A DNA stretch of 64,000 nt from Amoebophrya sp. A120 (lineage: Eukaryota > Protista > Dinoflagellata): assembly GCA_905178155.1 (NCBI GenBank), contig CAJINV010000006.1, positions 1,489,876-1,553,875 on the forward strand. Reading direction: 5' to 3'. The notes beneath the pieces were generated by a model. That model saw only the letters and a program-made list of their open reading frames with translations, was not told the DNA's origin and made no database searches. The position numbers were made by a program, and so were the translations under genes. Below are positions 6,721 to 37,943 of the stretch, in pieces (position 1 is the stretch's first letter; the number at the start of each line of letters is the position of its first letter).

Positions 6721-7044
6721 AATCATTCCATCTCGAAAGTATTTCCGCCTTGTAGATTTGCGTGATGTGTAGCGCGTACTACCAGCTACTACGCGAGCAA
6801 TGATCCCAATACGAGCGAGTTATATGATCATATACTTAATTACACAACGAGTATGGGATGAACGATTTGTCTTTCATTCTGTTTTAGCTGCACCAGACAG
6901 ACCCAACGATTACATCATGCGCTAGGGCCTCTTGTTACCCCGATCATGCTTCTTGCTCCCGTCGACGTCGCGGCAAATATGGGCTAAGTTCTACTTGCAG
7001 CACCAAATAAATCCAGCAGCAGTGATCAACCCAGGATCAACAAC

Positions 7045-10000: not shown

Positions 10001-12813
10001 CAATGCGTTCCGGTGTTTACTACAAAGCATCGAGAAAGACTCCGAGCTGGATCTGATCCTAGACTATCAACTGCAAATATGTCTGGGTCTGGAAGAATGT
10101 ATGTTTGTCATGCGTGTCTTGCATGACTCTTAAATCTGTCATGTATGTTACCCAAGAGCCCCATTTTTCTGTCATGCAGAAACGCAGTTTGTCATGCAGA
10201 ATAGGCAACGCCTAGAAGCTCAAAGACTTGTCATGCTGGGCCAGCTCTTGTGGCCTCCTCATGATACGCCACCCAGCATCACAAATTTCCAGACCCAGAC
10301 ACTTTTGCACAGGATATAGATGGGTTCCTAAGGCAGATGAACGTGGCGGACGTGATTATTTACGGCTATAACGCGAACACTTACTCGACTGCGACGTCCA
10401 AAGCGCTCCAAAACCGGGAAGAGAGGAAGGATTTGACGGACACAAACTTGATTCTCATCCTTCTCTGGCAGTGCTTACACCACAACCCGTTGTTGTTACA
10501 AAGGCTCGGAACGGCCAACGCCGGAATCCACACCCCCGGGCAGCCGAGTCGGGGGTTGGTGTTTTCGTTGTTTCTGTTGAAGCAACTGGCGAGAATGCAC
10601 GCCCAGAATTTGGACGCGATGCAGGTCGTGCACAATACTAGCAGCAGTTCTAGTACTTCGGAACAACAGCAGAGTAGAGCAGGTGGCGCAGCAGCTGGTG
10701 TAGTTCCTTCCCAACAAACAATGACCTCCAGAACAGCAGAGCTCCACCTTTGCTCGTTTTTGCTTTTGCTTCTATTATGCGTTGCAAAAGTATCGTACTC
10801 GTATAAATGCATGACAAATTTCCTCAGCATGAGAGGGAGAATTTGTAATGGGGATTTACCTTCATAAAATGATTTGTAATGCATGATTCCCATACGACTA
10901 CGAGTACGATACTTTTGCACAGGATATCTATCGGGCGAACGGAACATCGCAGTTTCTCTCAACATATCAAATGTAAAAATGTCTGGGTCTGGAAGAATGC
11001 AACTTGTCATGCTAAATCTGAAGCATGCAAAAATCTGTGTTGCATGATTACCAAAAGTCGTCCAGTTTTGACCAAGTCGGGAGGGAGTTTCTCATGCAGG
11101 ATAGGCATGAGAGAGATTGCGCAGAATCTGTCATGCTAGGTCCTGCATTCCAGGCTTCATGGGTCATGGAAAAGCTGCATGACAAACCGCGTATTCTTCT
11201 AGACCCAGACATTTTTGCATTTGATCAAACACGAGTATCAACACGAACGGAAATAAGTGGTGGGCGGTGGAGGTGTTAAACTCTTTTTCGAAAAACCTAC
11301 ACAGCACAGGTAGTGGCGTCGCCAAAGCGGCCGCGCGGACAGCAACCGCCGGGCCTCGCAGTACCGAAATGGAGCAGGCGATTCAGCAAATCAGCAAACA
11401 CTTACTTGCAGAGTCCAAGCCCGCCACTTTCGCGGATTTTTTCGTGTTGGTCCTGCTGAAATTGATAAGCGACTCGTTGCTGAAGGATGAGCCGTTGGTG
11501 GATTTGCTACTGACAATCCTCTGCAACATCTCGCCTATGCAGTGCAAAACAAGTATCGTACTAGTATAAATCGCATGACAAATTTCCTCAGCAAGCGAAA
11601 TAAAATTTGTGATGCGGATTTAACCTTGAAACAAAAATTTGTAATGCATGACTGCGATTACTACTAGTACGATATTTTTGCAATGCATATCGCCTTACCT
11701 GAAACAACTGGCGGTCACAACGTGTTTGAAGCTCACCTCCTTTTTCGAACGAATCTGCAAAAAGAATTATCTCTTGAAAAACAGCACGAATTACCGGAAT
11801 TTGTTTCTCCTCATCGAGTTTTTCACCAACATTATCCAGTACCAAGCGGAAGGGAATCAGGTTTTGCTCTACTCTCTCGTGCGGGTCAAGAGTGTGTTTG
11901 AGAAATTGGAAGAAATGGAGTTAGATGAGGAGATTGCAGAGCGGGAGGTTGAAAGGATGAGAAATGACAGAGATCAAGGCCAAATTGCAGGGTCTCAACT
12001 ATCCGACTCAACTACCACCAGCAAGCAGTCTTCCAAGGGAAAAAATACAACAACAGCAGCGGCAGCAGCAGCAACAGGAACAGCTACCTCCGGAAAAGAT
12101 AAAGACCCCAATGAACTACAAGTCAACAAGCAAAGATCCCACAGCTCTGACACGACAACGTCGACCAGCAGGTACGAACAACAATTGCTGAACAAAAAAC
12201 TTTGGTTCCATTCCTGGCACGACCAGAAACTGCCACAAGTTCTCAGCACGGTGAAGCACCTGATTTACAAGCTAGAGCCGGAGATTATTGAGCAGTTCTA
12301 CAACACTGCTCGCGAGGTATGCACTGCAAAAGTATCGTACCAGTTCTAGTATGAATTGCATTACAAATTAGCCCAGCATTTTTAACTAAATTTGTAATGC
12401 TGATTTACCTTGAGAAAGCGATTTGTACTAATGCATAAACGCAATGACTACGAGTACGATGCTTTTGCACAGGATACGAGGGCCCCGCTGGCAACTACGC
12501 ATCCGGAGACACCGCGCCGCCGGATATGGACACGATTATTGAGTACATGCGGACCAACACGACCACCGTCGGTTTACTCCCCCAGCCCCACGCGATTGTG
12601 GTGAGGACGTACATACCAAATTTGTACACGACGATCTGGTTCACGCATTTCCTGTACGGCGCGGCATTTGCGAAGATCACGACGGCGTTGGCGCCGTTGT
12701 CCTCGAGCGCGTCCGGGGGAGTGTCTGCGGCGGGGAACGCGGGGGAAAGTTTGAGTCTCGCCGGGCTGTACGACTGTAAGAAGATTAAGCTGGTAAACGT
12801 GGTGATGGCGTGA
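7045..12813 (+). CDS. HID1: HID1-family (HID-1/Ecm30) Golgi/secretory trafficking protein, ~1354 aa
   Basis: Exons 7045-8627, 8886-8919, 9086-9281, 9559-10064, 10322-10775, 10932-10964, 11232-11535, 11695-12317, 12482-12813 (4065 nt). N-terminal MG myristoylation-type start. Reassembled motifs LLLLSGERN, LLTILCNISPYLKQL, FTNIIQYQAEGN and VGLLPQPHAIVVRTY match recalled HID1 motifs. Confidence 0.92.
8628..8880. mobile_element. Introner, family A (TAT..TGCAAA..GTCTGGGTCTGGAA)
   Basis: TIR; DR GCGCA/GCGCA. Confidence 0.92.
8920..9085 (+). other. Canonical GT-AG intron in HID1 (166 nt)
   Basis: GTATTT...TATCAG; removal gives MST|VFSPP in frame. Confidence 0.8.
9282..9553. mobile_element. Introner, family A
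   Basis: TIR; DR GTCAT/GTCAT; frame restored. Confidence 0.92.
10065..10316. mobile_element. Introner, family A
   Basis: TIR; DR TAGAC/TAGAT; LILD|GFLRQ. Confidence 0.92.
10776..10926. mobile_element. Introner, family B (TAT..TGCAAAAGTATCGTAC)
   Basis: TIR; DR TCTAT/TCTAT; restores LLSGERN. Confidence 0.93.
10965..11226. mobile_element. Introner, family A (3' end ATC)
   Basis: TIR; DR CAACA/AAACA; frame restored. Confidence 0.88.
11536..11689. mobile_element. Introner, family B
   Basis: TIR; DR TCGCC/TCGCC; restores NISPYLK. Confidence 0.93.
12318..12476. mobile_element. Introner, family B
   Basis: TIR; DR CGAGG/CGAGG; can be read as GT-AG intron 12317-12480. Confidence 0.92.
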
Positions 12814-13499: not shown

Positions 13500-14640
13500 A
13501 AGCCGTACGCCAGACATCGCCAACGGGTGAGGCCGCGACCTCGCGCTGGCCGCTTGCTTGCGTTGTAAAGTCTCGCGACCTCTGCGGCTACAGGCACGGC
13601 CGCAAAAGTTACAGGCCGGCCCCGGGCGGTTTTTTGGGCCCCGCCTCCGGGTGTTGGCGATCAGCATAGGCGCCCGGAGGATCGTGGTCGATTTCTTCTA
13701 CGGTTATGCCCAGTGCTCCGCCGCGATACGCCTGGTTTTTCTTCTTCGATCGGCGCCGCCCGCGGTTCGCCTGGCTGAGAGGACCGAGCAGCGGCAGAAG
13801 GCCCCCGGGCCACCCGCTACAAGCGCAGCGCCCAAGTGGAGGGGCGCCAGGGGTGCAGGGGCGTCGCGTCGCGCCCGCCCTGGGCCTCCTTGCCCCCCCC
13901 GGCCCGCCGGCGTTTGGGCCCAGGTTGTGAGCCCCGCCCGGGGGGGGGGGTGGGGCGCCGGGTCGGGTCGTGCCGGTTTCTGGGTGAGCGTTGCCGCCCC
14001 CTTGGGGCGGTGGTGGATCGGCTGCAGGAGCTCGATCCCCAGCAGGCAGGGAGGCAGCCCCCGAGAGGAAGAAGTCTCGCCTATCGTGCAGGGAGGCAGA
14101 AGGCTCGCCTATCGTGCAGCCCGGCCGGCGCGGCCGTCGGTCTGCGTCTAGGATAGGAAGGTCCCGCGTGTTCTCCCCCAGCGGAACAGAAGCCGCCGCC
14201 GCTGCGCGGCCGGGCCCTGTTCGTTGTCTGTGTTTTTTTCTTTGGAGCCTGGCGCCCTGGTGCCGCCCTTTGTTTGTGGGGCGGGGGGCGCCCACCTGGT
14301 GCCGGAGGGGGGGTGGCGCCTTGGGGCCGGCTCTGTGCCCTTGCCTCGCTCCGCTAGCCCGGCCGGGCGCTGTGTCTCTTCCGGCCGTGTGCTCTCTTGC
14401 CCCCCCGGACCGGGGTGGTGTTGCCCTTGAATAATTCGGGTTGGCGCCCCCCCGCCCAAACGCCGGGCCCGCCCCCCCGTCCTATCAGCGCCCCGGCCCG
14501 GGGCCGGGTGGGTGGCTGGGTGGTGTGTCGTTGCCAGATTCAGGCGCGCAGAGAGACATCCGCGCCGCCTGGCCACCCCTTGGGTGGCACGCGCGCCCGC
14601 GGACGGATCTTGGTGGGGCCGGGCCTAAGCGCAAATTAGT
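13500..14640. other. GC-rich intergenic block, probably transposon-derived
   Basis: Abrupt rise in GC, G/C homopolymer runs, short direct repeat CTCGCCTATCGTGCAG x2 (~14076-14120). Boundaries approximate. Confidence 0.4.
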
Positions 14641-14899
14641 GTATGAAGATTGGATACAATTTGGCCACGCGTTTGAAGGAGCCTTGAAACAAGCAAAGTA
14701 AGGAAAAATATTCAGGCAACATCATGCAAGCAAGGCGACGCAGAGCGCTTCCATCCATCGCAGAGGCAATAAGTGCTAGCAGATGCCTACTCGTTCCGAC
14801 AGTTCCAGGACCAGGCCTCTCTTATTCTCTGTGAATGTTGTTCCCCCCGCCACCGTTCAGATAACAGGCCATCCAAGGAGGTAGGCCCCTCCTCCCAAA

Positions 14900-15667
14900 A
14901 TGAATATGATCCCGTCTTTGCTACCCGTAGAAGTTACAGACGCCAGACGTAGATCTTCTTCTTCTTCGTTGCGTGAAAATAAGATAGACAAGAGCTATGC
15001 TGTCACCAAGAAACGCAATCTATTGCGCACTGCCCTACCAGACGAAGTCTTGCCGTATTCCTCAAAGGTAGGAGGTCAACTAGAAGAACAATTATTCAGT
15101 CCTGCTCGCCCTGATGCGACGTTTTTGAAGAATGAGAAAAATTTTAGAAAGCCAACCGTAGGTAGCTCCTTTGATGGCTTGTTGGAACCTAAAAAGAGTA
15201 ACGATGTTGACGAGAAAGTTGTAAAGCTGGACACAAATAAACGTCGTGGTGTTGAGAACAACAAGCACGATGCTGAAGATTATGTCGAGTTGCAGCTATT
15301 GCCAAAAAGAAGTACTGGTAGAAGCACAGCAGTAGAATTTGACGCAGCCTGTGCTTCTGCAGATGAAAATCAATTTCAATTTCGTCCAAACCAACCTAAT
15401 TGTAGAACCTTTGGAGAAGTACAACTAGCAGTAGGACGAGTTGTAGATTATGCAAAGAACGACCCTAAAAATCAAGGACGTAGAACAGCAACTGGCCGCT
15501 GCACGAGTAGAGCCGAAAACTCCTACTTGAAATTTACCACCGCCTCGGTTCCCTTCGGGAGCACCCCTGGACTTGTCGTGGACGACAGTCTAAAGCGGTT
15601 GAAAAATGAGCAGAAACTGAGTAAAGACCTCAACACGCGCCTTGTTCAGGAGAAGGAAGCACGGGAA
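14900..15667 (+). CDS. Upstream coding segment (256 codons), in frame with centrin once insert 15668-15903 (+5 nt) is removed
   Basis: Long ATG-initiated open frame; junction reads KEARE|NKMNRTRG. No recognisable domain. Confidence 0.5.
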
Positions 15668-15903
15668 TATGACAGTGCACAAAGACCCCCCGCCCTCGTC
15701 CTCACTTGCATGTTGGCAAGAACAGCAACACAAGCAACGGCAGCTATGTGGCTTCCGCATGACAAACACGCGCACGGATCATTGTAGTACTATTTGGAAA
15801 TATCATTCCGAAATTTGGCGTGCAGGCACTGCCTCAGGGCAGGATGTGGGCTTGGTGTTTTGCATTAAAAATGAGGGAGAGGGTGGAGCTGTGCACTCTC
15901 ATA
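15668..15903. mobile_element. Introner, family C
   Basis: TIR; DR GGGAA/CGGAA. Confidence 0.87.
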
Positions 15904-15914
15904 CGGAAAACAAG

Positions 15915-18900
15915 ATGAACAGAACGAGGGGCAGAACGACGAAACACGTCGTCAATCCAGCAAGCAAGAAGGGGCTCGGTACTTTTTTGGATGTAGAGCT
16001 GTTTGTCATGCGCAGTTTACTTACAGAATGGAAGTTTGTCATGCATTAATGCCACGACGAACAAGAGATTTCTGAAATTATCAGATGACGAGCAGCTAGA
16101 GGAGCTTCGGGAAGCTTTTAACCTCTTCGACGCCGACCGATCTGGGGTCATTGACGCGAGGGAATTGAAGGCAGCAATACGAGCGCTTGGTATATAATCG
16201 CAGAGGTGCATTGTAGTGTTTTTCTTTTTGTTTATGTTTTACTCCGAAAGCGGGGGTTCCAGGGTCCGGGTTGCCGAACCCGTGCAGAACTTGCGGAGAA
16301 CTCGGCTGCGCGTGTTTCTTGTCTAGAATATTAGAGCCTGCCGGCGGTCTTTGAAATATGATGACGATCCCGATGATGCAGCACTCCGCGAAAGTGAGGC
16401 GGGCATTCGCGTTGAGACTTCCCGTTACGCCTGAGACTCCTAGGCGGCGCGCCATTTTGCGGCGGGGGGCATCTGTGTTTCCGCTCCGCGCGCCCTTCCT
16501 CATCGGTAGTTTCCCGCGCCAAGTCTTGAAGGCAGGCTGCCGGGGCCGTCCGCTTGCGCCTTTGGTTTCCTCGGCATTTTGTTGGCCACATGCGCGCGAT
16601 CTGCGCACTTTTGCAAAGAAGTTGCTGCAGTACCATCGTGTAACGTACGTTACACGATGGCGCTCTGCTTGTTTGCCTTATCGCTTGCCGGCCAGCCTAA
16701 CCAGGGTAGAGAGCCCTGCTTTTAGCCTGTCCATGGCAGCATCGTGAGTAAAGTTAGCCACGGCGGAAGTGCGTTGCTTTGGTTGTTTTCGCAGCTTCGG
16801 GCGCAGTGTGCTACGCCTGGGAGTGAAGGCCGGACGGTGTGGCTAACGACTCCACAGGCGTGCCAGAGGCCCACCAGAGTAGGGTAGCTTCCAGCTGCGC
16901 GGCTCGGTTTGGACGGTTGTAGATGGGGCGCCGCGGTTGCAGCCTGGGGCCCTGTTACCCAAGAAAACCGGCCACGGCTCTCATGCGCCAGAATTTGAGC
17001 CAGAACTTGATCCAGAACTTGCTCCAGAACTTGTTCCAGAACTTGTCTCAGAACTTGTCTCAGAACTTGTCGCAGAACTTGTTCCAGAACTTGCCTCAGA
17101 ACTTGCCAGGAGCTTGATTTTGTGCCCTTTTTTGGCCCACCTTTTTGTCCCGTACCACGACGGCACGGCCGTTTTTTCCCCTTCTTTTTTCCGGCCCCCG
17201 AAAACCGTCTCGGCAAGTTCCTGAACAAGTTCTGAGACAAGTTCTGGGACACACGAGCTCGGCGACAAGTTCTGGACCAAGTTCTGCGCCAAGTTCTGAG
17301 GCTCGCAAGTTCCGGGAAGAGTTGGGGCTCTGGAGCAAGTCCCGCAGCAAGTTCCCGAACAAGCCCCGGGGCAATTCGCGCCGTAACACGTTCCCGCGCT
17401 AGCGCCCCCCCCCAGCAAGCCCTTTGGGAAGTATATTCGGAGCAAGCGAGCCCCACCACGGGGCCCGCGGGCGAGCGTGGTTCGGGCCCTGTTGCTGGGA
17501 GGAGTGCTATGTCGGATCGAGCGCGCCGGCTTTTGCCGCTGCATGCCAGCGGCGTGCTCTTGGGGGCGGCGCGCTGCGGGGGCGCGGCCAGGCAGACAGC
17601 CCCGCAGCGAGCCTTGTCGGCCGGCCACATCTTCGGCGCCCCGGGGTTTTTTTGAATGGATTGTGGGTACAGGGATGCGGTGTTCCGCGCTTTGGCAGTG
17701 GAGCCGGTCTGGGTGTTCGGCGCAGTCTTTTCCCCCCTCGGCAGGCGAGCGGCGTAGGTGGGCCGGGCCCTGGCGCCGAGTGGCCCCCCGGAGTGTTTTC
17801 TTTGTTGTCATTGCCTCGCGGGCCGCTGAAGCGCGTTGCTTTATTCCCCGTTTGCCCAGCAAGCGAAGCCGCGTGCCACCGTGTAACGCGCGTTACACGC
17901 TGGCGCTGGCCTTTCGCCTGAGAAGGCTGGCTAAGCAGGCAGGACGCTCGAAACTCGCTCACTGGCCGCGCGGGGCCCTACTGCTTTGACCCTCCCGGAA
18001 ACGGGCCGAACAAGTTCCGCGCAAGATCTGCGCGAATTCGGGGCACCATACATCTAGACCCATGCTTTATTATGTTTTCGCAAAATTTGTGATGCATGCT
18101 TCTCTAGAGCCTACGATACTTATTGCGGAGTTATTTGTGATGCGATATCAAGATGACTATCCTGCTCTGTATTGCAAAAGAACATTTACAACAAACCCCT
18201 CAGGTTTCGTCGTGAAGAAAGAGCAAGTCCGGCAGATGCTCCGAGACGTTGGCCGCGACGTTAGTACGCATTGCAAATATGTCTGGGGGTGGAAGATTGC
18301 GGCTTGTGATGCTGGCTTTGGATTTAAAACAAAGCCTGTATTGCATGACCAGCAACAGGGATCCAGTTTGTGTTTGTGCTACCCGGACGAGAAGGTATTT
18401 CTCATGCGGGATAAGCATCAAGAGGCCCACCTCGCCTCGTAAAAATATTTGATGCTAGAGCATGCATCAGAGACATCAAGGGTCATCATGCAAAATGTGC
18501 ATGACAAGCGTTTCACATTTCGTCCACACCCAGGCATATTTGCATTTGATAGTTGGTTCCCAGATAACATTCGAGGACTTCGCGAAGATCATGGCGGGGA
18601 AGATGGGCGACAGGAATAGTCGAGAGGAAATTAACAAAATTTTCAAGCTCTTCGACGAGGACGCCAGCGGCAAAATCTCGTTCCGAAATCTAAAACGAAT
18701 CTATCAGAGTGCAGAACTCCCCCTGCCCCTCATTTGTATTGCATGAAAAGCATTACAAGCCCCAGCACAGGTGGACCCTGTGCATGACAAGTTCAGGAGC
18801 CGAGTGTAGTACTGTTTGGATTGTTTTCGGAATTTGTCATGCACGCGGTGCCACAAGGTAGCAACAGGATTTGGGTTTTTGCATGACAAATGAGGGGGAG

Positions 18901-19357
18901 AAGTAGTTGTGCACTGTCATAGAATCGCGCAGGAGATAGGCGAGAGTTTGAACGACGATGAGTTACAGGAGATGATTATCAAGCAAAAAAGTGTTAACGT
19001 TGATGGTTTTCACAAATGGCAGCTACGCATTACAAATTTTGCCTTCATTGCATGCTACGCAATACAAATTTGGACACCCTTTCTGATGCGTTACTGCATC
19101 ACAAATTCCGTTAACGTTAACGCTTTTTCTTGTGATACTGATAGACGAGGCCGACCGGGACGGGGACGGGCTGATCAATCCGGACGAGTTTTACCGTATT
19201 TTTATATTTGGAGTGATGTGAATCTGTGATGCGAGACTGGGTTGCTTGGTTTGATTTGTGATGCGAAAATGGAAATGAAAGCAAAAACACGACCACAGGT
19301 GTAATGCGCAAGCGTGGTGACAATCCACTCGACGACTTTGATACGGATGACGATTAG
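15915..19357 (+). CDS. Centrin (4 EF-hand), 178 aa from ATG 15915; possible 258-aa N-terminal extension from ATG 14900
   Basis: Exons 15915-15978, 16085-16189, 18204-18264, 18557-18701, 18927-18976, 19143-19195, 19299-19357 (537 nt). Reads [39 protein letters not shown]...[73 protein letters not shown]. Confidence 0.95.
15979..16084 (+). other. Canonical GT-AG intron in centrin (106 nt)
   Basis: GTACTT...TATCAG; removal gives KKGLDDEQ. Confidence 0.88.
16270..18045. mobile_element. ~1.8-kb GC-rich insertion with foldback features inside the long centrin intron
   Basis: Imperfect inverted ends (GCAGAACTTGCGGAGAACT versus AGTTCCGCGCAAGATCTGC), internal opposed 12-mer arrays and two related palindromes. 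Boundaries approximate. Confidence 0.55.
16990..17365. repeat. Opposed 12-bp tandem arrays
   Basis: About 10 copies of CAGAACTTGnnn at ~16990-17110 face degenerate CAAGTTCTGnnn copies at ~17213-17365. Confidence 0.85.
18265..18551. mobile_element. Introner, family A
   Basis: TIR (TAC start); DR GTTAG/GTTGG; frame restored. Confidence 0.9.
18702..18921. mobile_element. Introner, family C
   Basis: TIR; DR GAATC/GAATC; restores LKRIAQE. Confidence 0.93.
18977..19137. mobile_element. Introner, family F (TAT..AAAAAAGTGTTA)
   Basis: TIR; DR ATGAT/CTGAT; restores EMIDEAD. Confidence 0.92.
19196..19298 (+). other. Canonical GT-AG intron in centrin (103 nt)
   Basis: GTATTT...CCACAG; removal gives EFYRVMRKR. 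Confidence 0.88.
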
Positions 19358-19376
19358 AGAGGTTGTAGCTGCTCCC

Positions 19377-19524
19377 TACCCTGTGCAAAAGTATCGTATT
19401 CGTATTGCAATCATGCATTACAAATCTGCTTCTTAAGGTCAGTCCGCATTACAAATTTTGTTTCTCATGCTGATGAACTTTGTAATGCATCATTTATACG
19501 AGTACGATACTTTTGCAATGCATA
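19377..19524. mobile_element. Introner, family B, in the presumed centrin 3' UTR
   Basis: TIR; DR CTCCC/CTACC; starts 20 nt after the stop codon. Confidence 0.85.
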
Positions 19525-20448
19525 CTACCTGCGGTAGTTTATTGTCGTGCTGGGATGAGCTGCTGCTGCACAACAAAGATTTGTGTAAATCTCAGAACCA
19601 CGACGACCCGCATGAGGAAGTGAATTCATCCTCCTGCACGCCGAATTTGTGAAAGTTGTCCATAATTCAATTTCATCTGTTTTTTTACTTGAAAGAAATC
19701 TTGTTGGAAATGGAACCGGAGTCCTACTGCTATTAGACTCAGAATTCATTATTTCGCCGGGTCATACTTACAATCTATGTACGCCAAGTACGCTATGAAT
19801 AGAACCACGGACGAGTAAGAAAAACAAATTTATCAAAGCAAACAACACGACAGAAATAAAAAACATCACACCATACCACGAGAACAAAGTCGCAGTGTGG
19901 ATCTTGTGGATGCTATTGAATTTTGCCTATTCATCGCTTTATTTTTTTCCTCCGGCGCACAGCAAGGACCTGTGGGGGAAAAAGCACGAAATAAACCAAT
20001 GTAGATTTTAGTTGTAGCTTCGCAATTGAAAAAAAAAAGACGCAAAGACGTCTAGGACTACAAAAATTACATAGCCTTTGCTTCCTTCTCAAGAAGCTTG
20101 TTGCAGTGAAATGCTGCCAGAATTGAAGGATAGCGGCATGCATTCTCATACATTCATGATGTTCTGGTCTTTGTTTGCCACCCCCGCCACCGCTAGTTGT
20201 AGATCTCCATTTTTAAGTGTTTCTTGCCCAGGATTTTGTTTTTTTCCACACTGAAGTCCATTACTGTGCCTGTTTGGAAGAAGATCTTCACAGCGGTGGT
20301 TTTTGCTTTTGCTAAGGCAACAAAGTGTGAATGAAAATTGAGAATCTTTCTTCGCCAGCCTCAACCCTGAGTATTTTCAGTATCAGCAACAGAAATCCAG
20401 CAGCACATAACAGTAGAAAAACAAAAATTGCACACGAAATAAAGTACG

Positions 20449-22138
20449 ATGCCGCCCTCAACACGAAAGCCTTCTACAGCTTCTGGTGCTTCCAAATCTA
20501 GGAGCAACAAGAAGAGCCCAGCGCCGGCGAGCAAGAGTATGAAGAAGGTTGTAAGAGGCGCTACACCGCCGGTTTTAAAACACGCTTCGTCCACCTCGAA
20601 GTCAGCGATGAAGAAAACAAGCACCGCAGCAGCATCGAAAGCGAAGTCAGGATCTTCACGAAGCCGGGGGAAAAATCCAATAGATACCAGCAAATCAACG
20701 TCCCGAGGCAGATCAAGAGCGGTGTCTACTTCGAAAAACCGATCCGGAAATAAGACGTCTCGGCTTGTTTCTCCATCCGCGGCAACTACTACAAGGGTAG
20801 CTCTCTCCCCAAACACGAAGCAAAGATTGACGAACAGCAAGAACCGCAAGACGATTTTGAAGTTTTACCTCTTCGGGTTCAGTTTCATCGCAACTGCTGG
20901 TTTTCTGTTCAGTTACGTGTTGCCGCCCTTGTCCTCGGTGAAAGCCTGTGATGAACTGGTGAACAAAATCGGGTTTCAAAATTTCTGGTTCCACCCGGAA
21001 AAAGAATTAGTGGCGTTCAACTGCTTGTCAAAGTACAAAGAGGAGCACGAATTCTACTTGTACATCGGGTTTTGTTTCCTGTATTTGTCCATGCAGTCCT
21101 TCGTGATCCCCGGGACGCTGCTGTTGTCGATCTTGTCCGGCGCTTTATTCCCGTTTTTCGTCGCGGAATTCCTCGTGGCCGTCTGCTATGAAATGCAAAA
21201 GGATCGTACTAGGATAAATCGCATGACAAACTTCCTCAGCACGACGAGAAATGAAATTTCCAATGCGGATTCCACTTGAGAAAGAAATTTGTAATGCATG
21301 AATGCGATTCGTACGAGTACGATACTTCTGCACAGGATATCTGCGCCACGACGGGCGCAACCATCTCCTTCCTGATCAGCAAGGTGATCTATCGTAAGGA
21401 AAAATCCTCCCTCCCTATACCGAAATGGAAATCTGTGATGCGGGATTTGTGTACACAAATCGGCTTTGTCTTGCAGTAGAGGACTGCAGGCAGTACGCAC
21501 CTAGCAAGGCAGGCATACTCCGCAGGCCCTACAGCATTACAAATTGCCTACAGGACGCGGCGAAGTTTTTGGGTTTGCCTTCTTGCAATACGGCGCCGAT
21601 TTGCGGTCTCAAATCAGCATCACAAATTTTTCAGAAGTAACCCGGTTTGGTATGGGGAGGGAGGATGTTCCCTCACAATATGATCGGCCAGGCGTTTTTA
21701 GACTACTTCAAACTAGATTTGGATTTAATCACGGAGAAACTGCATTCGCTCATGGGGGAAGAAGGAGGAGGAGACGCTTCTAGCACTGGCGGTCACAGCA
21801 AGAATGCCGGGAGCAAATCCTCGGGCAAGGGTGGCAAAAAGAACCTCAGCCAGGAGCATAAATCCCTCGTCATCCCACTGACCTTACTCCGCGTCACGCC
21901 CTTTCCGAACCTACTACTCAACATCGGCGCCCCGCACGTCGGGATTCACGCGTTTGAGTTTTATTTTAGCACCCTGCTCGGGTTGGTGCCGCTAAACACG
22001 GTGCACATTCTGTCCGGAAGAGCTTTAGCGGAGTTCGGAAAAGTGGAAAAAGGACCGGTGTTGAGCATCATGGGCGTTGGGACGGTTTTGCTGGTAGCGG
22101 TTTTGTTGTGGAAAAGGAGGAAGGTGAAAAGTGAATGA
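20449..22138 (+). CDS. TMEM41: TMEM41/VMP1/DedA-type (VTT, SNARE-associated) membrane protein with basic N-terminal extension, ~411 aa
   Basis: Exons 20449-21186, 21345-21389, 21686-22138 (1236 nt). Motifs QSFVIPGTLLLSILSGALF, AVC|ATTGATISFLIS and LRVTPFPNLLLNIGAP. Confidence 0.88.
21187..21339. mobile_element. Introner, family B
   Basis: TIR; DR TCTGC/TCTGC. Confidence 0.92.
21390..21680. mobile_element. Introner, family D (TATC..GAAAAATCC-C-rich)
   Basis: TIR; DR TGATC/TGATC. Confidence 0.9.
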
Positions 22139-22951
22139 GTAGTGTCCGTCTATTTACTTATTAGTGCGCTGACTTTGATGTCCACTTGACAATTTCCATT
22201 CATCTGGTCCTCGTAAAAGTGTAGTCCGCACCGGAAGTGGTACGACCTTTCTCGTCCGCTTGGAATGTAGGTCTGATATTACTCCACCGCCGTCGAAGAA
22301 CCGGTGTTGTTGTCAATCAGATTCAGAAATGCTCTTGGAGGTGACCAATGGACTAGTTCGAAATTCTAAGTGCCTGCCTCCTCCTCGAAGATCACTGCTC
22401 TTCATGATGACGAAAATTGATGACAAGGGCCAGATCGGAATTAAAAGGTGCTTTAGTACAAGAATGTGCACGACAACAAGAGCAAATTTGATATAGACAG
22501 CGAAATAAACTCGTTGCTCTTGCTGCTGCAGATCACCAAGATCAGTGTAAAAAATTCTCTGCCCTGGTACACAATTGTTGTGAAGATGATCCACTTTCAA
22601 CATTTTTTGTTTAATGCACGCAAGGCAATGCCCATTTAGCATAGCAGATGGTTCCAAAATGGCCACTGTATTTGCTCTTCACGGTCGATGTTTTCCCTGG
22701 ATTCATTCGCTACTTCGCGCACTGGCATTTGCTTCATTGTGTTAGTATACCAAAGCGGAAACGACAGGCCGAGGCACCAGCGGAACATGGGACAAGCACA
22801 GGACTTAGATCTAAAAAGAAGAGATATTGATCGGCACTAGAACTACAGCAGGCGTTCGTTCTCTTCGTAATATTCTCATCCACCGGCACCGATACAACAT
22901 TTTCATTACTGTCCAACTTTCAAGAACCAATAGTCACAGAAAAACTCTAAA

Positions 22952-26663: not shown

Positions 26664-28342
26664 ATGGAGGCTGCTGCAGGCGGAAGGGCGAGCGTGAAGA
26701 GAAACTCGCGAAACACGTCTCCACATGGGGCGGGAGGCGGACGGAAGAGCCAGGCAATTTACGATGCCGGAAGCAAAAAAGGCTGCTGCGGCTCCTTATG
26801 CGTTGCAAAGAAATGATTTTTATCTCATCCGGGTGAACTGCAAGAAGGTGTATGAAATAAAGTGCACACTTCTAGTCTTGCTGATAGATTGTGATTGCGT
26901 ACTTCTACTACAGGAGAATGAAAATCTACACTCACCGGGTCATAACTTTGACCAAGAAAATGAAAAGCAAAACATGCCTTCCCGTGAAGTGGAGCCGGCG
27001 ATTACATCTGGGCATTCCGATTACTGTTATTCTGCTTAAGGACTCTTAAATAGTAATAGACCCTGCATATTAGCTGCACCACTCAAATGAAATCTGCATC
27101 TGAATCTATCCTCTCCAGTCGCTCGAGATGAAATCATTTCTCCCTCTGCCTCCATACCCATGTTGTGGTTGCAACTGCGGGCTGTGGAGTTTCCTGCAGC
27201 TCTCAATCGCATTGTTCCTCACCAAAGACGTGTACCAGATGATCGAGGCGATGGCCTACTGCCGATCGAATCCGGAGCTGTGCGTGAATTTCGAGACCCT
27301 AGAGTTTGCCGCCGCTATCGTGTGTCTCCTGGCCCTGGTGTGCAGCATCGCCATGTTTTTCTTAAATTCCTTCTGCGGCGACTCCAAATGCGGTTTTCTC
27401 TTCATTTTCTTCTGCATGATGCTCATTATGCTGTTCGACGCCATTTTTTATCGAATGCAAAAAAGTCTGGGTCTGGAAGGATGCAAGGTTTGTCGTGCAG
27501 GTTTTCCATGACCCATGAGGTCTAGCATGTAGGACATAGCATGACAGATTCTGTGAGAGTTCCATTATGCCTATCCTGCATGAGAAACTGCCTCTCGATT
27601 AGGTCAAAAGTCGACAGTTTTTGGTATGCATGCAACACAGATTTTTACATCATTCGGATTTAGCATGACAAGTTGCTTTGTTCCAGACCCAGACACTTTT
27701 GCATTTGATATTTTCCTCGGATCCAAGCGGTGGCACGGCCCAAGCTTATCCTGTGCAAATATGTCTGCGTCTGGGTCTGGAAGTTTGTGGTGCTAAAGTG
27801 TGCATGATGAAAAAACTTTCTCATGCAGGAAAGCATGACAAGTTTGAACAACCCTTTATCATACGAATCCCGCATGAGAAACTGCGTTTTTGTATGACGT
27901 GAGAGGCTGCCGCTGCCACTTTTGTTGGTCTCGCAATACAGATTTCACAGGAATGCAAGACCAGCATTACAAGTTCCAACTTTCCAGACCCAGACATGTT
28001 TGCATTTGATAAAGCTACGGTGGCGACAACGATAGCATAAAGTACCTGAACGACATACGACTCTGGACGGGGGTGCCATATCCTTTGCAAAAGTATCGTA
28101 CTCCTAGTAGTAATTGCTATCAGGCATGACAAATATCTCTTCTTTAGGTGAATCAGCATGACAAATTCAATTTTTCGCTATGGAAAAATTTGTGATGCAA
28201 TAGCAATTTATACGAGTACGATACTTTTGCAGTTCATATGCCAGGCGGGTTGTTGATAAGCTTTTTGGGTCTGTACTACGGGGGCGCCACGCAGGACCCC
28301 CCAGCAGTAATGAAACACTGCCCGTGGGACGAGAGAGTTTGA
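26664..28342 (+). CDS. Cys-rich multi-pass membrane protein, paralog 1 (~203 aa)
   Basis: Exons 26664-26796, 27162-27448, 27716-27746, 28017-28078, 28244-28342 (612 nt). KKGCCGSCCGCNCG, about four hydrophobic segments, ends WTGVPGG..LYYGG..PWDERV*. Aligns with paralogs 2 and 3. Confidence 0.8.
26797..27156. mobile_element. Introner, singleton type
   Basis: TATGCG..AGAAATGATTT / AAATCATTTCT..CCATA; DR CTCCT/CCCAT; frame restored. Confidence 0.75.
27449..27710. mobile_element. Introner, family A
   Basis: TIR; DR TTTTT/TTTTC. Confidence 0.9.
27747..28011. mobile_element. Introner, family A
   Basis: TIR; DR AAGCT/AAGCT. Confidence 0.92.
28079..28238. mobile_element. Introner, family B
   Basis: TIR; DR TGCCA/TGCCA. 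Confidence 0.92.
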
Positions 28343-28441
28343 GGTGCTGGGAGTTGATGTTGGCACGAGCCCAAATAAGCAGCATTCCAAGCGAAACACC
28401 TACCATTTTTTCACCTGCAACAAGTGCAACGGCTTGGATTC

Positions 28442-30975
28442 CCATCGTGATTTGGTTAGTAGGTGGATCCCTTCGGAACGCAGAAAATAGAAGAAAGGGA
28501 TAGCATAAGAGGCGTCTTTGGTGTGTGTGTGTTGTGTAAAGTGTGGAGGAAGTTGGTTTCCTTGCTTGAATTGCGAAACGCGAAAAGCGAAAAAAATACA
28601 AAGCCGATCCATAACAGAACTCACACAGTAAGCAAAGAAAAGGGGGAGGCGGCTCCAGAAATGCGAAACACGAAAAACGAAAAGAGCCCCAAGACAATGA
28701 ATATAGTAGGCAGAGAAAAAGCGGAAGCGGCCCACGAAAAGCGAAGCGCGAAGAAAACGACCGGGGAAATAATCAGCAGAAGAGGTAGAGAGAAGCGAAG
28801 GCCGACCCCGAAATGCGAAACGCGAAAAGCGAGCCCAGCCGTTTGGCTTTGTTCTGCCTTTTTTTTCATCACAACGAACCCCCCTCCTTGCTTTGAATGG
28901 TATGCACACAGCCCCGCGCGTTTTTTTTCAATAGCGACGCGAGCGATCTTGGCGAAGCTCCGCACTTCATACGTTGCGCAGCTATTTTGCAAAGGAAAGC
29001 AAAAGGGAAGGCGTCCAATTCGTGGAGGCCCGGGCCCCGAGGGCGTTTTTGCTTGCTCGGTCTCAATATTGTCGCGAGGGATGTTGCCCGCCCGTGCGCC
29101 CGCAACAGATCGACGCGGCCCCCGCCCGCGAGGGGCTGCGCCGTCATCAGCAGAGCCAGTCTAGCAACATAACGCAAGCTAACAACTAACAAGCGCCGGG
29201 CCGGCGCGATCTTCGACAGGATACACCGAAAGGGCGCGCACGCTACAAACATGCCGCGCGCACTACAAGCGCGCGCATACGGGGGGTCTGGGGCGCCCGG
29301 GGGCCGGTGCAGCGCATTTCTCCAGGGTGGCGCCGCGCGCCCATGTGGGGGGCGGGCCCCACATCCGGCCGGGGCAGATCGGCGGCTGGATGGCAGCGAG
29401 CCCCACTCGGCAAACCCAGGCTGGCCAGTGCGGACCGCCGGCGCGACCGCGAGCGCTTTCAGGGGCCGCATTTTGCTCCGCGGGCGGATTCTCGCTGAGA
29501 GAAGGGCTAGGCCTGTTGCCATGGGCAAAACCTTTGCAACGCCATCGCTTTCCAGCTCGATGGCGCTCAGGGATTTGCGTTGCATTTTTCTACCGATGAG
29601 GGGCCTGCGCTTTTTTCTTCGAACCACGAGAGGGCTTTCGCTTCAGTAATCCGCCTGCGCTTTTGGATGGTTGGGCTTGCTGCGGTGAACAGGGTCGCCT
29701 CCTTCTCGTCATTAATTTTTTGCGCGCAATGAATCGCGTGGGTTTGTTTGCATTTGCTTCCATTGGTGGAGAAAAGTGCGCGCGCTTTCATTCTCGAGCC
29801 ACGAGCGAGCTGCCAGCCTGATTTACTTCGCCGGCGCTCTTAGGTGGAATCTGTTGCGATGGCCCTGGTCTCCTCGCGAAACCCTCGCAACTTTGTGCTG
29901 CCGCCCGCGCCTCGAACACGGTGGGGGCGGGGCTTGGCGCCGGCGGCCCTCAGGGGCGGGCGCCCATCGCTGCGCCCTGCTACATTGGTGCGCCCGCCGG
30001 GAAGTTTCTCGCGATATTCATTTCGCCACACACACACACAAACAGAAGCGCCCCCACGCGAATGCCCAGCGTTTTCGTTTCGGGCCTACGCAACAGGGCG
30101 CCAGCCCCGCCCTAGGCTGCGGCTGGTGCGACCGACCAAGGGCCCGCCGCGCCATTTGGCGCGGCATGGGCCAAGCGCTGCGACTGGGATCCATGCCTCC
30201 GCTTTCCGCGCGCCCCCCGCCCCGGCCTCTCGCCCGGCCAAAACAAAGACAGGCGGGCGGGACGGTGGTCCACGTCGATCTGTTGTGCTTGGGCGCACGG
30301 GCGAGCCGCGTGCCTAGCGACAACGCCAAGACCAAGAGCCAACCCCCCCGGGTCCCCGGCCTCCTAGAACTGGACGCGCCCCCATGCGCATACAAACTAT
30401 AAGTAGCCCCGCAGGATATTAAGTGTGGGGATCGTGGATATCGCTAGTGCGGAAGGGAAGGAGAGACAACGTCGGAGGCGGCGCCGAGCGTCGCCAATGT
30501 CTCTACTTAGTAAGAGGCGAAGGGCCTGCCTTCTTTCCTCACCGCTTTTCGCGGGCGCTTCGTGTTGCTTTCTCTCTTCTTACTCTACTCATTATCAGGG
30601 AGCCCACCCCGGTCGCTTTGTTGTTTTTCGCGCTTCGCATTTCGGAGGCGCTTCCGCTGTCTCTCTTCCTGCCCTACTGAGTAGCCACGGCCCCCCTTTT
30701 GGCTTTTCGCGTTTCGCATTTCGGAGGCGCTTCCGCTCTCTCTCTTCCTACTCTATTAATTGCCCACGGCCCCCCTTTGGTTTTTCGCTTTTCGCGTTTC
30801 GCATTTCGGAGGCGCTTCCGTTGTCTCTCTCTTCTTACTCTCCGAGTTCTCTATTGCCTTACTTTGGTTTTTCGATCGCTTTTCGCGTTTCGCATTTCGG
30901 AAGCGCTTCCGCTCTCTCTATAGTTAACTGGACAGATCTGCGATCTCTTTTAGGAAATTAGGTGAATCACGGTGG
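28442..30975. mobile_element. ~2.5-kb GC-rich foldback-type non-coding element (intergenic)
   Basis: Inverted subterminal arrays: GAAATGCGAAACGCGAAAA-like units at ~28570-28830 versus TTTTCGCGTTTCGCATTTCGGAGGCGCTTCCG units at ~30620-30915. Inner inverted homology ~29005-29130 versus ~30255-30385. Possible termini CCATCGTGATT / AATCACGGTGG; no TSD seen. Confidence 0.65.
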
Positions 30976-32506: not shown

Positions 32507-33838
32507 ATGGCCTGCAATTGCAACTGCGGCTGGGTCCACTTTGCGATGTTCTGGTCGGCGTGTTTCATGCTACAGCGCTTTATCCTAATGGCGATGGACA
32601 CCAGCGACCAGGCGAAGTCTATGCGCGGCGAGGTGCTCACAGTGAGGATCATCGCCATGCTCTGCATGGCCGTGGTGGTCGTGCTGCAGATGCTCACGGT
32701 GTTCTGTAACAAAAACGGGAAGTGGGGCCTCTACACGTGCATCGCCTGCCTCTATCAGAAAGAAAAATCCCCCCTCGTCCCCGTATCGATGACGCAAAAA
32801 TTTGTGATGCTATATTCGAGTACACAAACCGATTTTTCATGCTAGGAGGGCAAGAGCCGAAGCTGTGGCCTCCTTTGCAGGCATATATTGTCATGCTGTT
32901 TCCCACTTCTAGCTGCCTCCTGTCATGCTGAAGACGCAATTGTTTACTCCCACGCCAACCAGCACTACAGTGTCTACATCTTTTCCCTTCTAGCATGATA
33001 AAGCTGATTTGTGGCCACAAATCTGCATCACAGATTTCCGCTTTGATGATATGGGGAGGGGGGATTTTTCTTCTTGATAGCCTCGCCGGAGTGTTCATAC
33101 TGGATGGTTTGATTGCTCGGACAGTTGACAGCGGTTTGGGCGTATCGCAAGAAAAAACCGTTTCAATGTGAACTTGTGATGCATAGAATGGAAGACAGAA
33201 CTATTTGTCTTGCCACACCTGCAAGACCTCGACTCTTTAGCGGTGTTTTCCCTTTGGAAGCGCGCATGGCAAATTTTCTGTGTCATGTGTAACACACTTG
33301 TGATGCAGATCTTGCAAGATCATCACAGTGAAACAGTTTTTTCGTGGGATAAGGCGATTACGTTGTCGGACCGCACCAGGACTTGACAAATGTGAAGACC
33401 TACTTCTTCGTTCTCACGTACTGGCCCGGAAACCTGCTGGTGACCTTGTTATGTACTGCAAATTTCGCTTGGGTCTGGATCTGGAAATACAAGTATATGC
33501 TCTACTTCGTCACTCACAAAAAAAATATAATTTGTGATGCGTGAGTTGGTACAACTACAAGTACAAAGGCTGGTTATGTTGGGGCACCTTTAGTAGACAT
33601 CACGTTCACGAGGATTTCTCATCCCAAATAAGCATGGCAAAGCCCATGATCCCGCAAAACCTGTGAAGATGCTGGGCTATGGCTTCTAAGTAAAACCCGC
33701 ATGACAAACTTCTGCACGACTGTTCAAGCCTGCTGACCCAGAGATGTTCTTTGCAGTGGATACGTGTTAGCCCTGTACTACGACGGTGGCGATTTGAAAC
33801 CGCGAACGAACGCCGACTGGCCTTGGGAAGGGGTTTAG
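32507..33838 (+). CDS. Cys-rich multi-pass membrane protein, paralog 2 (~155 aa)
   Basis: Exons 32507-32752, 33085-33142, 33357-33449, 33768-33838 (468 nt). Starts MACNCNCGW, ends YWPGNLLVTLLALYYDGG..WPWEGV*. Confidence 0.75.
32753..33079. mobile_element. Introner, family D
   Basis: TIR; DR GCCTC/GCCTC; body similar to 50442-50757. Confidence 0.9.
33143..33351. mobile_element. Introner, family F-like
   Basis: TIR; DR GGGCG/AGGCG. Confidence 0.82.
33450..33762. mobile_element. Introner, divergent family A
   Basis: TIR; DR CTTGT/CGTGT. Confidence 0.82.
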
Positions 33839-35157
33839 ATGAAGGACAAGGATTTTCAAATGTCTATATGATTTTTTTCGGCGACACTCACACTACCCAC
33901 CAGTGAAATGTAGAACTATCGAAAAGAAAGAAGATGTTTGCTATTGCTCCCCGCAAAATGAAGATCGCACATGTACAATACCACAACGAACTATGTATAG
34001 CGTGATCAACGCGACGCGCTACTATACCGTCACAAGTTCTGAGCTCGTTGCGCGACGAATTTGAAATTTCAAACGTACAGCGAGCGCAAATACAGATACC
34101 ACCCCAACATCCGCACAGAGACAGAATTTTATGTACGGAATATAAAAGACAGAATTTTAACACCAACGCGCCAAACTCGGAATACCAATCCACTTCTTCT
34201 CTTGCCAGCAGTACAAGTGTGGCGATACGACCACTTCCGCCCTCTTCTTTTTGTTGTGACGCTTCCAGTCGTCCAGCGCCCGTCTGGGTTTCGGTTTTAC
34301 TTGTAAGTGCATCTTCAAAATCGGTTTTACTTGTAAGTAAGTGCTCATCCTACGTACCTCGCGCTGCAAGAAATAATCGTGCGACCTATTTTCACAACAG
34401 CACACGACTAAGTAGAACCGCAAGCGATTGCTGTCTTCGCACGTAGTTGTGCCTGCATTGCCGGCACCACGACCACAGGTTGATGCAAAAATATTTTTCA
34501 CCAATCGTCCCGCGTGTTTTTCCTTTTCGTTCGTGATGTTGCAAAAGCCTGACAGTTGCGGTGATGTTGCACAAACCTGGTATAAACTCTGAATCTTTTG
34601 TCCTTTTCGTCGTGCTACTTTATCAGTAGAACCAACAGGAAATTTGCAAATCTAATCGGTTTTCGTTCACAAAAACCTCGTGTTTCGTTCACAAGAAAAA
34701 GAGCCTCGTGACTCACTTGTTTTTATCGGACCAGTTTCAGGAGTAAGCATACGCACCGCGAAATCACTTACTATTTTATACAGAGAAAATAATTGCAATT
34801 TGAATTTTCGCCCCAATATAGCGTAAGACACCTCCTCATCGTCCCTCTTCGTGTAAGTAGTAGTTTAACGCCTACTGATCTTCATTACATTACACGACTT
34901 TAGAAATAGAAAGGAAAAAACTCATGGCTTCATTCGAAATACGCCAGCGCTGCAAAGGACCAGGCGCTGAGAAAAAAAAACGGCGCACGTGAGCTGTACT
35001 ACACAGTTCTTCGGATTTTCTTTCCTAATTGTATGTAGATTCATATTCATTTTCGACCATTCTCGTGGACCGTGAGACGAAGCGAGTTTGGGACGAAAAA
35101 TAATTCTTGTTCCCACTCTTTCAAAAGCAAGCGTCCCGGCTACACGGCCTATAGAAA

Positions 35158-37943
35158 ATGCCTCGGGACAGAAGCAAAGGCGCCACCTCCTCTGGGCGCG
35201 ACAAAAGTGGAGACCGGAGCGGCGGGGACCGCGACCGGAGTGGTGGGGACCGCGACCGGAGTGGCGGGGACCGGAGTGGCGGAGACCGGAGCGGCGGAGA
35301 GCGGAGTCCGCGCACCGTTCCACCACTTAAAATAGTTGGCACTCTGAGCAAATCAGAAACTAAAGTCGCATATCAAATGCAAATATGTCTGGACCTCGAA
35401 GACCCCGAGGCCTGTCATGCAGATTTTGCATGATCCATGTCGTCTGCAATGCAGGACCTAGCATGACAGATTCTGTGAGATGATCGCTATCGTGCGTATC
35501 TTGCAGGACAAACTTCCTCGCAACTTGGTCAAAAGTGGACAGCTTTTGACACTCATGCAACACAGATTTTTGCACGATCCAGAATTAGCATCACAGGTTG
35601 CAATCTTCCAGACCCAGACATATTTGCAATGCATATCGCGATGAACCGAGCTGGCGGTCGCGGCGGAGGCGCGGGTTCTTCCAGTGATGACCTTTTGAGC
35701 GGAGCCGGCGATAGCGATTTTGAGTCGGGTGGCGCTCTAGGCCTCGCCGCGGGAGGAGGTGGCGGGGGCGACAAAAACAAGAGCGGACGGAAAAAGCAAA
35801 GCAACGGCTGCGGCTGCTGCACGTACTGTTGTCGGTGCCCAATGTTCATGGTGTTAGAGCTCTCACTGGCGATTTTTCTCATGCGCGACGTCTATCTGAG
35901 CATCAAGGCGATGGTGGACTGCCCCACAGTGGACCAGAGCGTCAGAGATGCCATGAGCAGTGCTGGAGGGAACAATTTCAACCCGGTGCAATCCTCTTAT
36001 CAAGCCCCGATGCAATCCTACATGGCCTCCTCTGCCAGCCAGCAGCCCGCTTATGCACTGCAAAAGTATCGTATTCGTATAAATGCATCACAGGTTTCAT
36101 CAGCATGAGAAGTGAAATTTGTAATGCGGATTTACCTTAAGAAAAAGATTTGTAAATGCATCACTGTAAAAATTACTACGAGTGCAATACTTTTGCAGTT
36201 GATACCGCTGGCACCGCTCAAACTTCGAGTTCGGGTGGAGGTGGAGGTGCATTCCCTTTATGACAATGAAAAATGCCCCTGCCGTTCCCGTTGCCGCCCC
36301 AGAACTAGTACTTGGCAGCATTTGTATTGCAAACCTACTTCCCAGTGGAAATATATCTTGTTGCAAGAAGCATCAGCATCACAAATTTTCAATGACGAAT
36401 AAGGTAAAATTTGTCTTGCAAAAGAGCCCAGCAACATCCTGGCAGAAGATGCCGTGCGCAGTGTAGTAGATTCAGCAGCATCAAAAAGACTTCTCATGAT
36501 CCTATCATGCAAAGATAAAAAGTTCTAGTTCTTCATTTGAAGAAAACCTTGTGCATCAGAAGCCTTTGGTGCAACAATTTCTGGGGTCGCTCGTGGGCGG
36601 GGCGATTTTAATTGTGATACCCGGCTTCAGCATTTGTTCAGGAGCACTTGTCGTCCTCGACAGACGGCGCCACGACCTCAATGGACGATGAAGACCACAA
36701 CATGAAGAAACACATAGAAGGCAGCAAAGAAGGCAGCACCAGTGCGACGTTCCTACAAGAGGAGGAAAATGAGCGCTCCTACCGCCGTTCCACAGCGGCA
36801 GGAGTAACCCAGCTACCGGGGCAGGCGAATGATCAAAGCAGGAGGGAACGAGATGCCACTAATTATGCCGAAGTAGTAGAGCAACAAGTAGATGATGGTC
36901 ATGGTCCGGAAGATTTGGCAAGCTCGCCGCATGAACAACCTTCAGATGTTGAATCACAAGTCGGTGGAGTTACTGTTTCATCTTCGACTTCATCGGCGTT
37001 CCTCTCCACTACGATGTCGACTTCGAAAAGTAGGGTTTCTGCCAAGAAGAAGATTACAACCTCCACGAGACACGCGGAAAGCAAATTCATCTCTCCGGGC
37101 AATATCATGAGCATGATGGGGATGATGGACGCTAACGGCTGCACCCCGTTTTTCGGCACCCTCGAGCTCGTCATGGCCTGCTTCTGCGTGATACGCTTTG
37201 CAAATATATCGATCTAGGTCTGGAAGTTTGTGATGCTGGGGATGTAAGGATAGTATTGAGATTGACGAGCGACGCATGACAAGTTTCATGATTTGAGAGA
37301 CTTCTACTACGGCTTCTTGCGTATTAGGTACACAGCGTGACAAGTAGTCGTTTTTTTGCATGATAGAGAAATAGCGGCCCTGTAGCGCACCCTGCATGAC
37401 AGATTTTTTCCTTCTCCTACCGAAGCATTACAGACCTAGATCGATCAGTTTCAAATCGATACATGATTCCCCTGATCCTGTCCGTAATCGTGCTCATCGT
37501 CAACGCGCTCTGCCAAGACAGCAATACGCATTGCAAAGGTTGTATCGCAATCATGCATTACTCGAGGTTGAGGTAAACCCGCATTACAAATCCCATTTCT
37601 CGTGCTGAGAAAATCATTTGTAATGCAGTTACTGCTACGTAGACGTAGTAGTAGTACGAATACGATACAGCTTTTCCAATGCATACAACAATTCGGTTGC
37701 CAATTTGTCTTTTTCTCGATGTTGGCCATTATGGTGTTGGACGGCACCTTTCTCGGGCCGAAAGTGTGGCCGGGCCCTAGCTACGGCCAGTTCGGAACCC
37801 AGCTAACGGATGTGCGGACGTGGACCGGGGTGCCCGGGGCGATGATCGTGAGCTTCTTCGGCATGTACTGGGACCAGAAGGGGAAGGGAAAAAATCTGCA
37901 AGTGCCTCCCGCGCTGCCGAAAGAGTACCCGTGGGACGTTTGA
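35158..37943 (+). CDS. Cys-rich multi-pass membrane protein, paralog 3 (~516 aa) with SGGDR-repeat N-terminus and a large inserted loop
   Basis: Exons 35158-35370, 35641-36051, 36210-36258, 36625-37191, 37467-37524, 37691-37943 (1551 nt). LELSLAIFLMRDVY, CQDSKFGC, FLGPKVWPGPSYG, WTGVPG and PWDV* align with paralog 1. Confidence 0.8.
35209..35305 (+). repeat. Coding tandem repeat (SGGDR/SGGDRDR)
   Basis: Repeated GG(C/T)GGGGACCG(CGACCG)GAG units in exon 1 of paralog 3. Confidence 0.85.
35371..35635. mobile_element. Introner, family A
   Basis: TIR; DR TCGCA/TCGCG. Confidence 0.9.
36052..36204. mobile_element. Introner, family B
   Basis: TIR; DR CCGCT/CCGCT. Confidence 0.92.
36259..36619. mobile_element. 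Introner, singleton type (degenerate)
   Basis: TATGACAAT..GCCCC / GGGGCG..ATTGTGATA; DR CCCTT/CCCGG; frame restored. Confidence 0.75.
37192..37461. mobile_element. Introner, divergent family A
   Basis: TCGATCTAGGTCTG / CAGACCTAGATCGA TIR core; DR CGTGA/CATGA. Confidence 0.85.
37525..37685. mobile_element. Introner, family B (degenerate)
   Basis: TIR; DR decayed (AGCAA/CAACA), but removing element +5 nt restores DSKFGC. Confidence 0.82.

Follow-up and report, generated by a model that had tools for sequence, protein, structure and literature searches.

Inverted-repeat introners of Amoebophrya A120 are probably spliced at a single register within their flanking duplication

The 64-kb stretch of DNA analysed here (the window) comes from Amoebophrya A120 and carries 56 catalogued inverted-repeat introners, 145–361 nt long, each flanked by a 5-nt duplication. 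Elements of this kind were described in A120 in 2021 (Farhat et al., PMC7789003), where the accessible text reports TAT-start arms, an A-run, 3–5 nt direct repeats and hairpins; the window elements have the same anatomy, and a spliced gene of the window equals an A120 protein. The 5' arm starts with TAT in 49 of the 56 elements, with TAC in six (18265, 19377, 37192, 37525, 45214 and 62648) and with AAT in one (59969), whereas the 3' arm ends with ATA in 54 and with ATC in two. The recount returned the same six TAC starts and the same single AAT exception as a preliminary description of this DNA. Downstream of the TAT start, an A-run places adenine at +12 to +14 in 48–52 of 55 elements. The direct repeat (DR) is exactly 5 nt long: its two copies are identical in 50–51 of 55 elements at positions 1–5 and in 6–18 of 55 at 11 flanking offsets. 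It is perfect in 37 of the 56 elements; the mismatched pairs noticed earlier are real, and the recount gives 19 of 56 rather than 20. Removal of the element plus 5 nt opens the surrounding reading frame in 55 of 56 cases, the remaining element lying in a 3' UTR, and yields long stop-free frames of 1303, 1355, 1669, 2366, 979, 690 and 517 aa as well as a complete centrin frame. Repeated introner families are present in the window, and introners are absent from spliced contigs, which points to removal at the RNA level. No Rfam families were found in the window. Its GC-rich non-coding blocks (4700–6700, 13500–14650, 16200–18000 and 28500–30950) include a 12-nt tandem array with an inverted partner (16965–17374) and repeats of 79–91 nt (30567–30919); numerous variant letters of sequencing run X5 at 28557–30942 suggest another repeat class.

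All features given below lie on the forward strand. The region 2899–11693 contains six introners with perfect DRs (elements at 2900, 3544, 8628, 9282, 10776 and 11536). Besides these, there is an introner at 10064–10320 with a synonymous DR mismatch at position 5, one ending in ATC at 10964–11230 with a mismatch at position 1, one at 12317–12480 with the perfect DR CGAGG, and one at 15667–15907, again mismatched at position 1. The centrin gene is interrupted by a TAC-start introner at 18264–18555 (mismatch at position 4, Ser/Gly, between which the homologs do not discriminate), by an introner with a perfect DR at 18701–18925 and by a third at 18976–19141, mismatched at position 1, while its 3' UTR holds a TAC-start introner at 19376–19528. 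A 278-codon open frame at 14903–15978 is in frame with the centrin start, and transcription of centrin may start before the 15668 element. Two introners with perfect DRs follow at 21186–21343 and 21389–21684 (together 21186–21684). A contig of sequencing run X1 (21445–22205) starts inside the 21390 element and runs into the exon, which represents either intron retention or DNA carry-over. The TSR3 gene has two introners, one at 23543–23811, which has a perfect DR and is missing from the spliced contig, and one at 23887–24041.

Three paralogous hydrophobic proteins are encoded at 27104–28339, 32507–33835 and 37080–37940, and their introner insertions differ. Paralog 1 has introners at 27448–27714 (synonymous mismatch at position 5), 27746–28015 and 28078–28242 (27746–28242 together, both with perfect DRs). 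The three introners of paralog 2 (32752–33766) have a perfect DR at 32752–33083, a mismatch at position 1 at 33142–33355 and a mismatch at position 2 at 33449–33766. A five-intron gene spans 35158–37943, with introners at 35370–35639 (synonymous mismatch at position 5), 36051–36208 (perfect DR), 36258–36623 (mismatches at positions 4 and 5), and two with TAC starts at 37191–37465 and 37524–37689. Farther downstream (41332–63729) there are twenty-six more introners, with mismatched DRs at 44042, 49756, 62648 and 63002, in addition to the AAT-start exception (59968–60122), the removal of which restores the frame.

The splice register is expressed here as k, the number of repeat bases contributed by the upstream copy. 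Run X1, which is RNA by guess, contains spliced contigs and has zero depth in 4 of 30 bins covered by the DNA run. Among the 8 X1 pieces listed, three mismatched sites are readable, in contigs that hide minor junctions, and all three show the upstream allele: position 2 at 37192 (k of at least 2), position 3 at 19377 (k of at least 3) and position 4 at the second TSR3 introner. At this last site the contig is 2498 nt long, the exact spliced length, with pieces that stop at 23538 and resume at 24042, so that only k = 4 or 5 is compatible with it. The repeat copies here are CTGGA and CTGAA, and the downstream allele creates an in-frame stop at registers 0–3 in place of a tryptophan that we take to be conserved, in an exon that matches PF04034. 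The contig and the stop agree with the preliminary description, which had placed positions 1–4 of the upstream copy in the exon. Register 1, with an A-N acceptor, is excluded by positions 2–4. One X1 record beginning at 35638 has the downstream G but was not counted, as it could be unspliced.

Proteins provide constraints from both sides. The five-intron gene, when spliced, reproduces the annotated A120 protein P0001 over 516 of 516 aa at register 4 and at no other; for k = 0 to 5, the numbers of residue differences are 3, 3, 2, 1, 0 and 1. Lys433 of P0001 demands k of at least 4 at 37525, and Ala225, which derives from the downstream allele at position 5, demands k of at most 4 at 36259. P0001 also has the upstream allele at position 2 of the 37192 site. 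A leucine in protein P0031 likewise limits k to at most 4 at a locus outside the window, L128, where position 5 comes from the downstream copy. Transcript alignments were the basis of the A120 gene models (PMC7789003, methods as accessible). At 37525 the DR copies are AGCAA and CAACA. Positions 1–4 all differ in the downstream copy, and P0001 as well as paralog 1 require the upstream bases there; position 5 and the spacing persist, as a cut between positions 4 and 5 (4|1) predicts, so identity of the repeats is not needed at this site. No Pfam match was found for P0001. The DSK residues encoded at this junction are common to paralogs 1 and 3, and the methionine of the centrin EMI junction (ATGAT/CTGAT, 18976–19141), supplied by the upstream allele, is found in 11 of 12 aligned homologs; both observations had been put forward in the preliminary description and stand.

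The same description had predicted upstream alleles in cDNA at positions 1–4 and downstream alleles at position 5. The former was borne out for positions 2, 3 and 4 in spliced contigs (three of three sites), and the latter has the support of 36259 and L128, in annotated proteins rather than cDNA reads. A stop-codon test on 28 mismatched elements outside the window found no informative case. In total, two sites require k of at least 4 and two other sites k of at most 4, with no site bounded on both sides, so that a mixture of 4|1 and 5|0 sites would pass the two upper-bound tests by luck one time in four. The contig alleles at positions 2–4, together with two transcript-guided proteins, support the previously suggested 4|1 register with an N-TA(T/C) donor, and a single cut between duplication positions 4 and 5 is probably the rule.

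A motif scan found 154 further loci, all in one other assembly. They contain 179 candidate arms, of which 137 elements were retained and 82 oriented confidently; the search pattern biases this set to one family. The DR is perfect in 109 of the 137. The 56 window elements and the 82 oriented ones make up a pooled set of 138. Under 4|1, the +1 base in this set is A in 45, G in 33, T in 33 and C in 27 elements, and the last two bases include all 16 dinucleotides, AG occurring in 8 of 138 (9.7 expected). Positions +1, –2 and –1 have no base preference across the 138 elements. The combination GT…AG is found in 4 of 138, where 2.8 are expected, and the set does not follow the canonical U2 pattern of GT (or GC) and AG. 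The 12317–12480 intron is indeed GT…AG under 4|1, as had been pointed out, but it carries no weight for the register and was dropped as evidence, since it is at chance level and register 1 also produces GT-AG twice in the same set. The window elements are nearly invariant farther inside: T at +2 in 54 of 55, A at +3 in 55 of 55, A(–7) and T(–6) in 55 of 55 and A(–5) in 54 of 55, with a T-run at –15 to –17. The acceptor, described earlier as sequence-free, is so for its last four bases only, since A(–7) and T(–6) are invariant. As transposon ends, TAT and ATA are expected to be conserved whether or not splicing reads them, and the invariant bases could be nothing more than such ends.

The elements have the traits of MITEs, or non-autonomous TIR DNA transposons: terminal inverted repeats, a duplication of fixed length, short length and both orientations. 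Among the 50 elements with a scorable neighbour, the nearest relative has the same orientation in 24 cases and the opposite one in 26. Introners are therefore inserted, and spliced, in either orientation relative to the transcript, which is new here, and their splicing signals must be symmetric. The families are abundant, because run X5, which behaves as DNA, reaches a depth of up to 49,000 over the elements compared to about 30 elsewhere. No cognate transposase is reported for A120 in the accessible text of PMC7789003.

The window also contains four canonical introns, three beginning with GTAT (8920–9085, 16190–18203 and 19196–19298) and one with GTAC (15979–16084), in agreement with the earlier count, and all ending in AG. 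They share an internal motif, TGTNATGC, with the introners. It is present in all four canonical introns, once in the first and twice in each of the others (for 16190–18203, within the last 112 nt, 18090–18203), in total seven times in sense and never in antisense orientation, 38–112 nt from the acceptor, against a background of one sense match in 48,294 nt. In the introners it is found 90 times in sense and 80 times in antisense orientation; the nearest sense copy lies at a distance of 41–305 nt from the 3' cut, and even a broad pattern finds none in 4 of 56 elements. This distance is too variable for TGTNATGC to be a ruler. The shared motif, which is new here, might act as a branch site, an intron enhancer or an intron mark; the term 'branch point' does not appear in the accessible text of PMC7789003.

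Three alternatives have to be weighed against fixed-register removal by a sequence-reading spliceosome. Both cuts might slide together (4|1, 5|0 or a mixture), which would be harmless since the repeats are mostly perfect. The legend of Fig. 3 of PMC7789003, as far as accessible, calls the splice sites variable and states that the position of the intron border is not known, and of the four mismatches at position 5 in the window all but one (36259) are synonymous, as if either allele may reach the mRNA. However, every readable constraint fits k = 4 and none demands another value. Furthermore, the nine predominant A120 motifs of Table S4 in the same paper, every one with T at +2, can be produced by alignment alone: when an aligner was simulated that slides toward GT-AG-like ends over perfect repeats, with an assumed scoring, all nine were among the top 14 motifs in the strand-aware and eight of nine in the strand-blind version. 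The published variability need not be real, and we regard a sliding register as unlikely. Since simulated sliding by itself gives 71% T at +2, the +2T-rich motifs were also rejected as genome-wide support for 4|1; Table S4 neither supports the register nor proves true variability.

The other two alternatives keep the cuts and change what makes them. In the model of the preliminary description, splicing is structure-guided: an RNA hairpin serves as the ruler, and the cuts are placed relative to the base of its stem, one of them 1 nt ahead of it and the other 4 nt past it. In-register arm pairs are in fact predicted (pairing probability above 0.5 at the three terminal pairs in 39–40 of 55 elements and at positions 9–11 in 47–53 of 55), the TSR3 intron folds with z = –3.99, and end-pairing has been proposed, in the accessible sources, for euglenid and diplonemid noncanonical introns. 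Yet any such transposon is expected to have inverted repeats, and z is only –1.46 for the 36259 intron. Arm positions 4–7 display no covariation (53 against 53.4 in shuffled arms; 21 against 28.3 for the window families and 191 against 208.9 for the loci), and on the transcribed strand G·U is not in excess over A·C (31 against 36 in the window, 45 against 59 in the loci). Moreover, all six TAC starts turn the third pair into C·A. Given the invariant A(–7)T(–6), a sequence ruler fits the data as well, and it is favoured because TAC breaks the terminal pair, matches canonical GTAC and is found at the donor end only (six 5'-TAC, no 3'-GTA in the window); the asymmetry was not replicated in the extra loci, where neither variant is present among the arms counted. 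Structure-guided splicing is thus unsupported, and the hairpin as ruler seems to us rather unlikely. Excision of the hairpin elements by a non-spliceosomal nuclease and ligase, with the match to GTAT a coincidence, would account for the absence of G(+1) and terminal AG and for the failure to find U1, and in euglenids the nonconventional introns are released in circular form, not as lariats (PMC11282704, accessible part). Against it, the introners have the same +2 to +4 as the canonical donors and share with canonical introns an internal motif that is sense-only there. According to the accessible text of PMC7789003, the A120 spliceosome is nearly complete, and the noncanonical donors of A25 are mostly TT with arms starting TTA, so that +2T and +3A are kept there too if the borders are right. 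Such an enzyme pair is very unlikely.

The reading that we prefer, fixed-register introner removal by a spliceosome that reads sequence, has as a whole a probability of roughly 0.55. The introner plus 5 nt is removed from the RNA, the cut probably falling between duplication positions 4 and 5 in every case, and a modified spliceosome would read the transposon end in place of GT and AG. The donor, N-T-A-(T/C), would retain +2 to +4 of canonical GTAT or GTAC and may be read by U6 without U1. Such reading fits several reports, as far as their text is accessible: in A120, U1 and snRNP27 were undetected and U2, U4, U5 and U6 present (PMC7789003), in yeasts +4U donors accompany the loss of SNRNP27K (PMC10581693), and U6 can select sites independently of U1 (PMC11732430). 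At the 3' end, the cut would be set by counting 4 nt on from the invariant ATA in the 3' arm, recognised chiefly as sequence, with no larger role for the hairpin than to bring the intron ends together, and the internal TGTNATGC would mark the intron as a branch site or enhancer. Because the arms and TGTNATGC are found on both strands, the orientation of an insertion would not matter to its function as an intron.

G(+1) and the terminal AG are generally regarded as integral to the catalysis of splicing. The introner elements were already known. There is good support, short of proof, for the single register and for its freedom at three terminal bases. It is a more tentative proposal, which we hold at slightly less than even odds, that the A120 spliceosome no longer depends on three of the four bases at the intron ends and instead recognises a palindromic code of the transposon ends, made up of N-TAY, ATA plus 4 nt and the two-strand TGTNATGC. 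If this is true, an A120 MITE would be excised without a trace as an intron wherever in a transcript and in whichever direction it landed, and the motif diversity published for about 30,000 introns would come down to one rule. The freed +1, –2 and –1, with +2 to +4 kept, would then reveal the contacts that splicing can do without and the way in which a host accommodates a burst of transposons.

The 4|1 rule would answer a question left by the genome paper, which in its accessible part leaves the border open and the motifs highly variable, and most noncanonical introns of A120 would have their borders corrected by it. The 4|1 register, the free +1, –2 and –1, the two-way orientation and the shared motif are absent from the accessible text of PMC7789003, the Figs S21–S23 of which might show a modal offset. 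No fixed A120 register was found in the literature searched, which comprised openly accessible text.

The remaining comparisons draw on the accessible portions of the papers cited. The same 4|1 geometry is seen in class 12 of the introner-like elements of Polarella glacialis (Roy et al., 10.1101/2020.10.14.339549), with a 5-nt duplication, NNAGG, in which +1 is the last base of the duplication, +2 belongs to the element and positions 3–4 form the acceptor. Class 12 requires G and AG and has one orientation, whereas the A120 elements accept any base and both orientations. The noncanonical introns of Fritillaria borealis are MITE-like, with inverted repeats and duplications as in A120, and those without GT-AG are removed by an adapted U2 spliceosome (PMC11282704, PMC13326754). 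Unlike in A120, their ends still favour AG-AC or AG-AT and U1 is conserved. The nonconventional introns of euglenids and diplonemids also have paired ends and short direct repeats and lack GT-AG (PMC11282704, PMC12621601), but euglenid introns have pyrimidine|purine borders and come out as circles, while the A120 donor resembles the host canonical donor from +2 onwards. Another Amoebophrya has canonical introns and U1 (10.1101/2024.09.05.611473); this source, PMC12130899, PMC9860276, PMC11453091 and PMC12787238 have no bearing on the register.

Several individual elements deserve mention. The flanks of the 59969 exception (59964–59971 and 60119–60126) are identical through position 7, so an A-TG donor is possible with the mRNA unchanged. 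A search for its gene returned an 86% identical relative, protein P0033, which diverges just before the 59969 site; it reads through the 59422 site and then, about three codons before 59969, meets what is apparently another introner family. These look like independent insertions in close relatives, with the family assigned by eye. In the extra loci, one element may start with TGT, its orientation being weak (L018), and another, with a G-TAT donor and an AG close by, lacks a direct repeat and may be spliced canonically (L061:561–826). A further element has the 5' arm TAAT (L106:300–580) and sits in a presumably cullin-like gene, the frame of which seems by eye to be restored by a donor anchored on TA.
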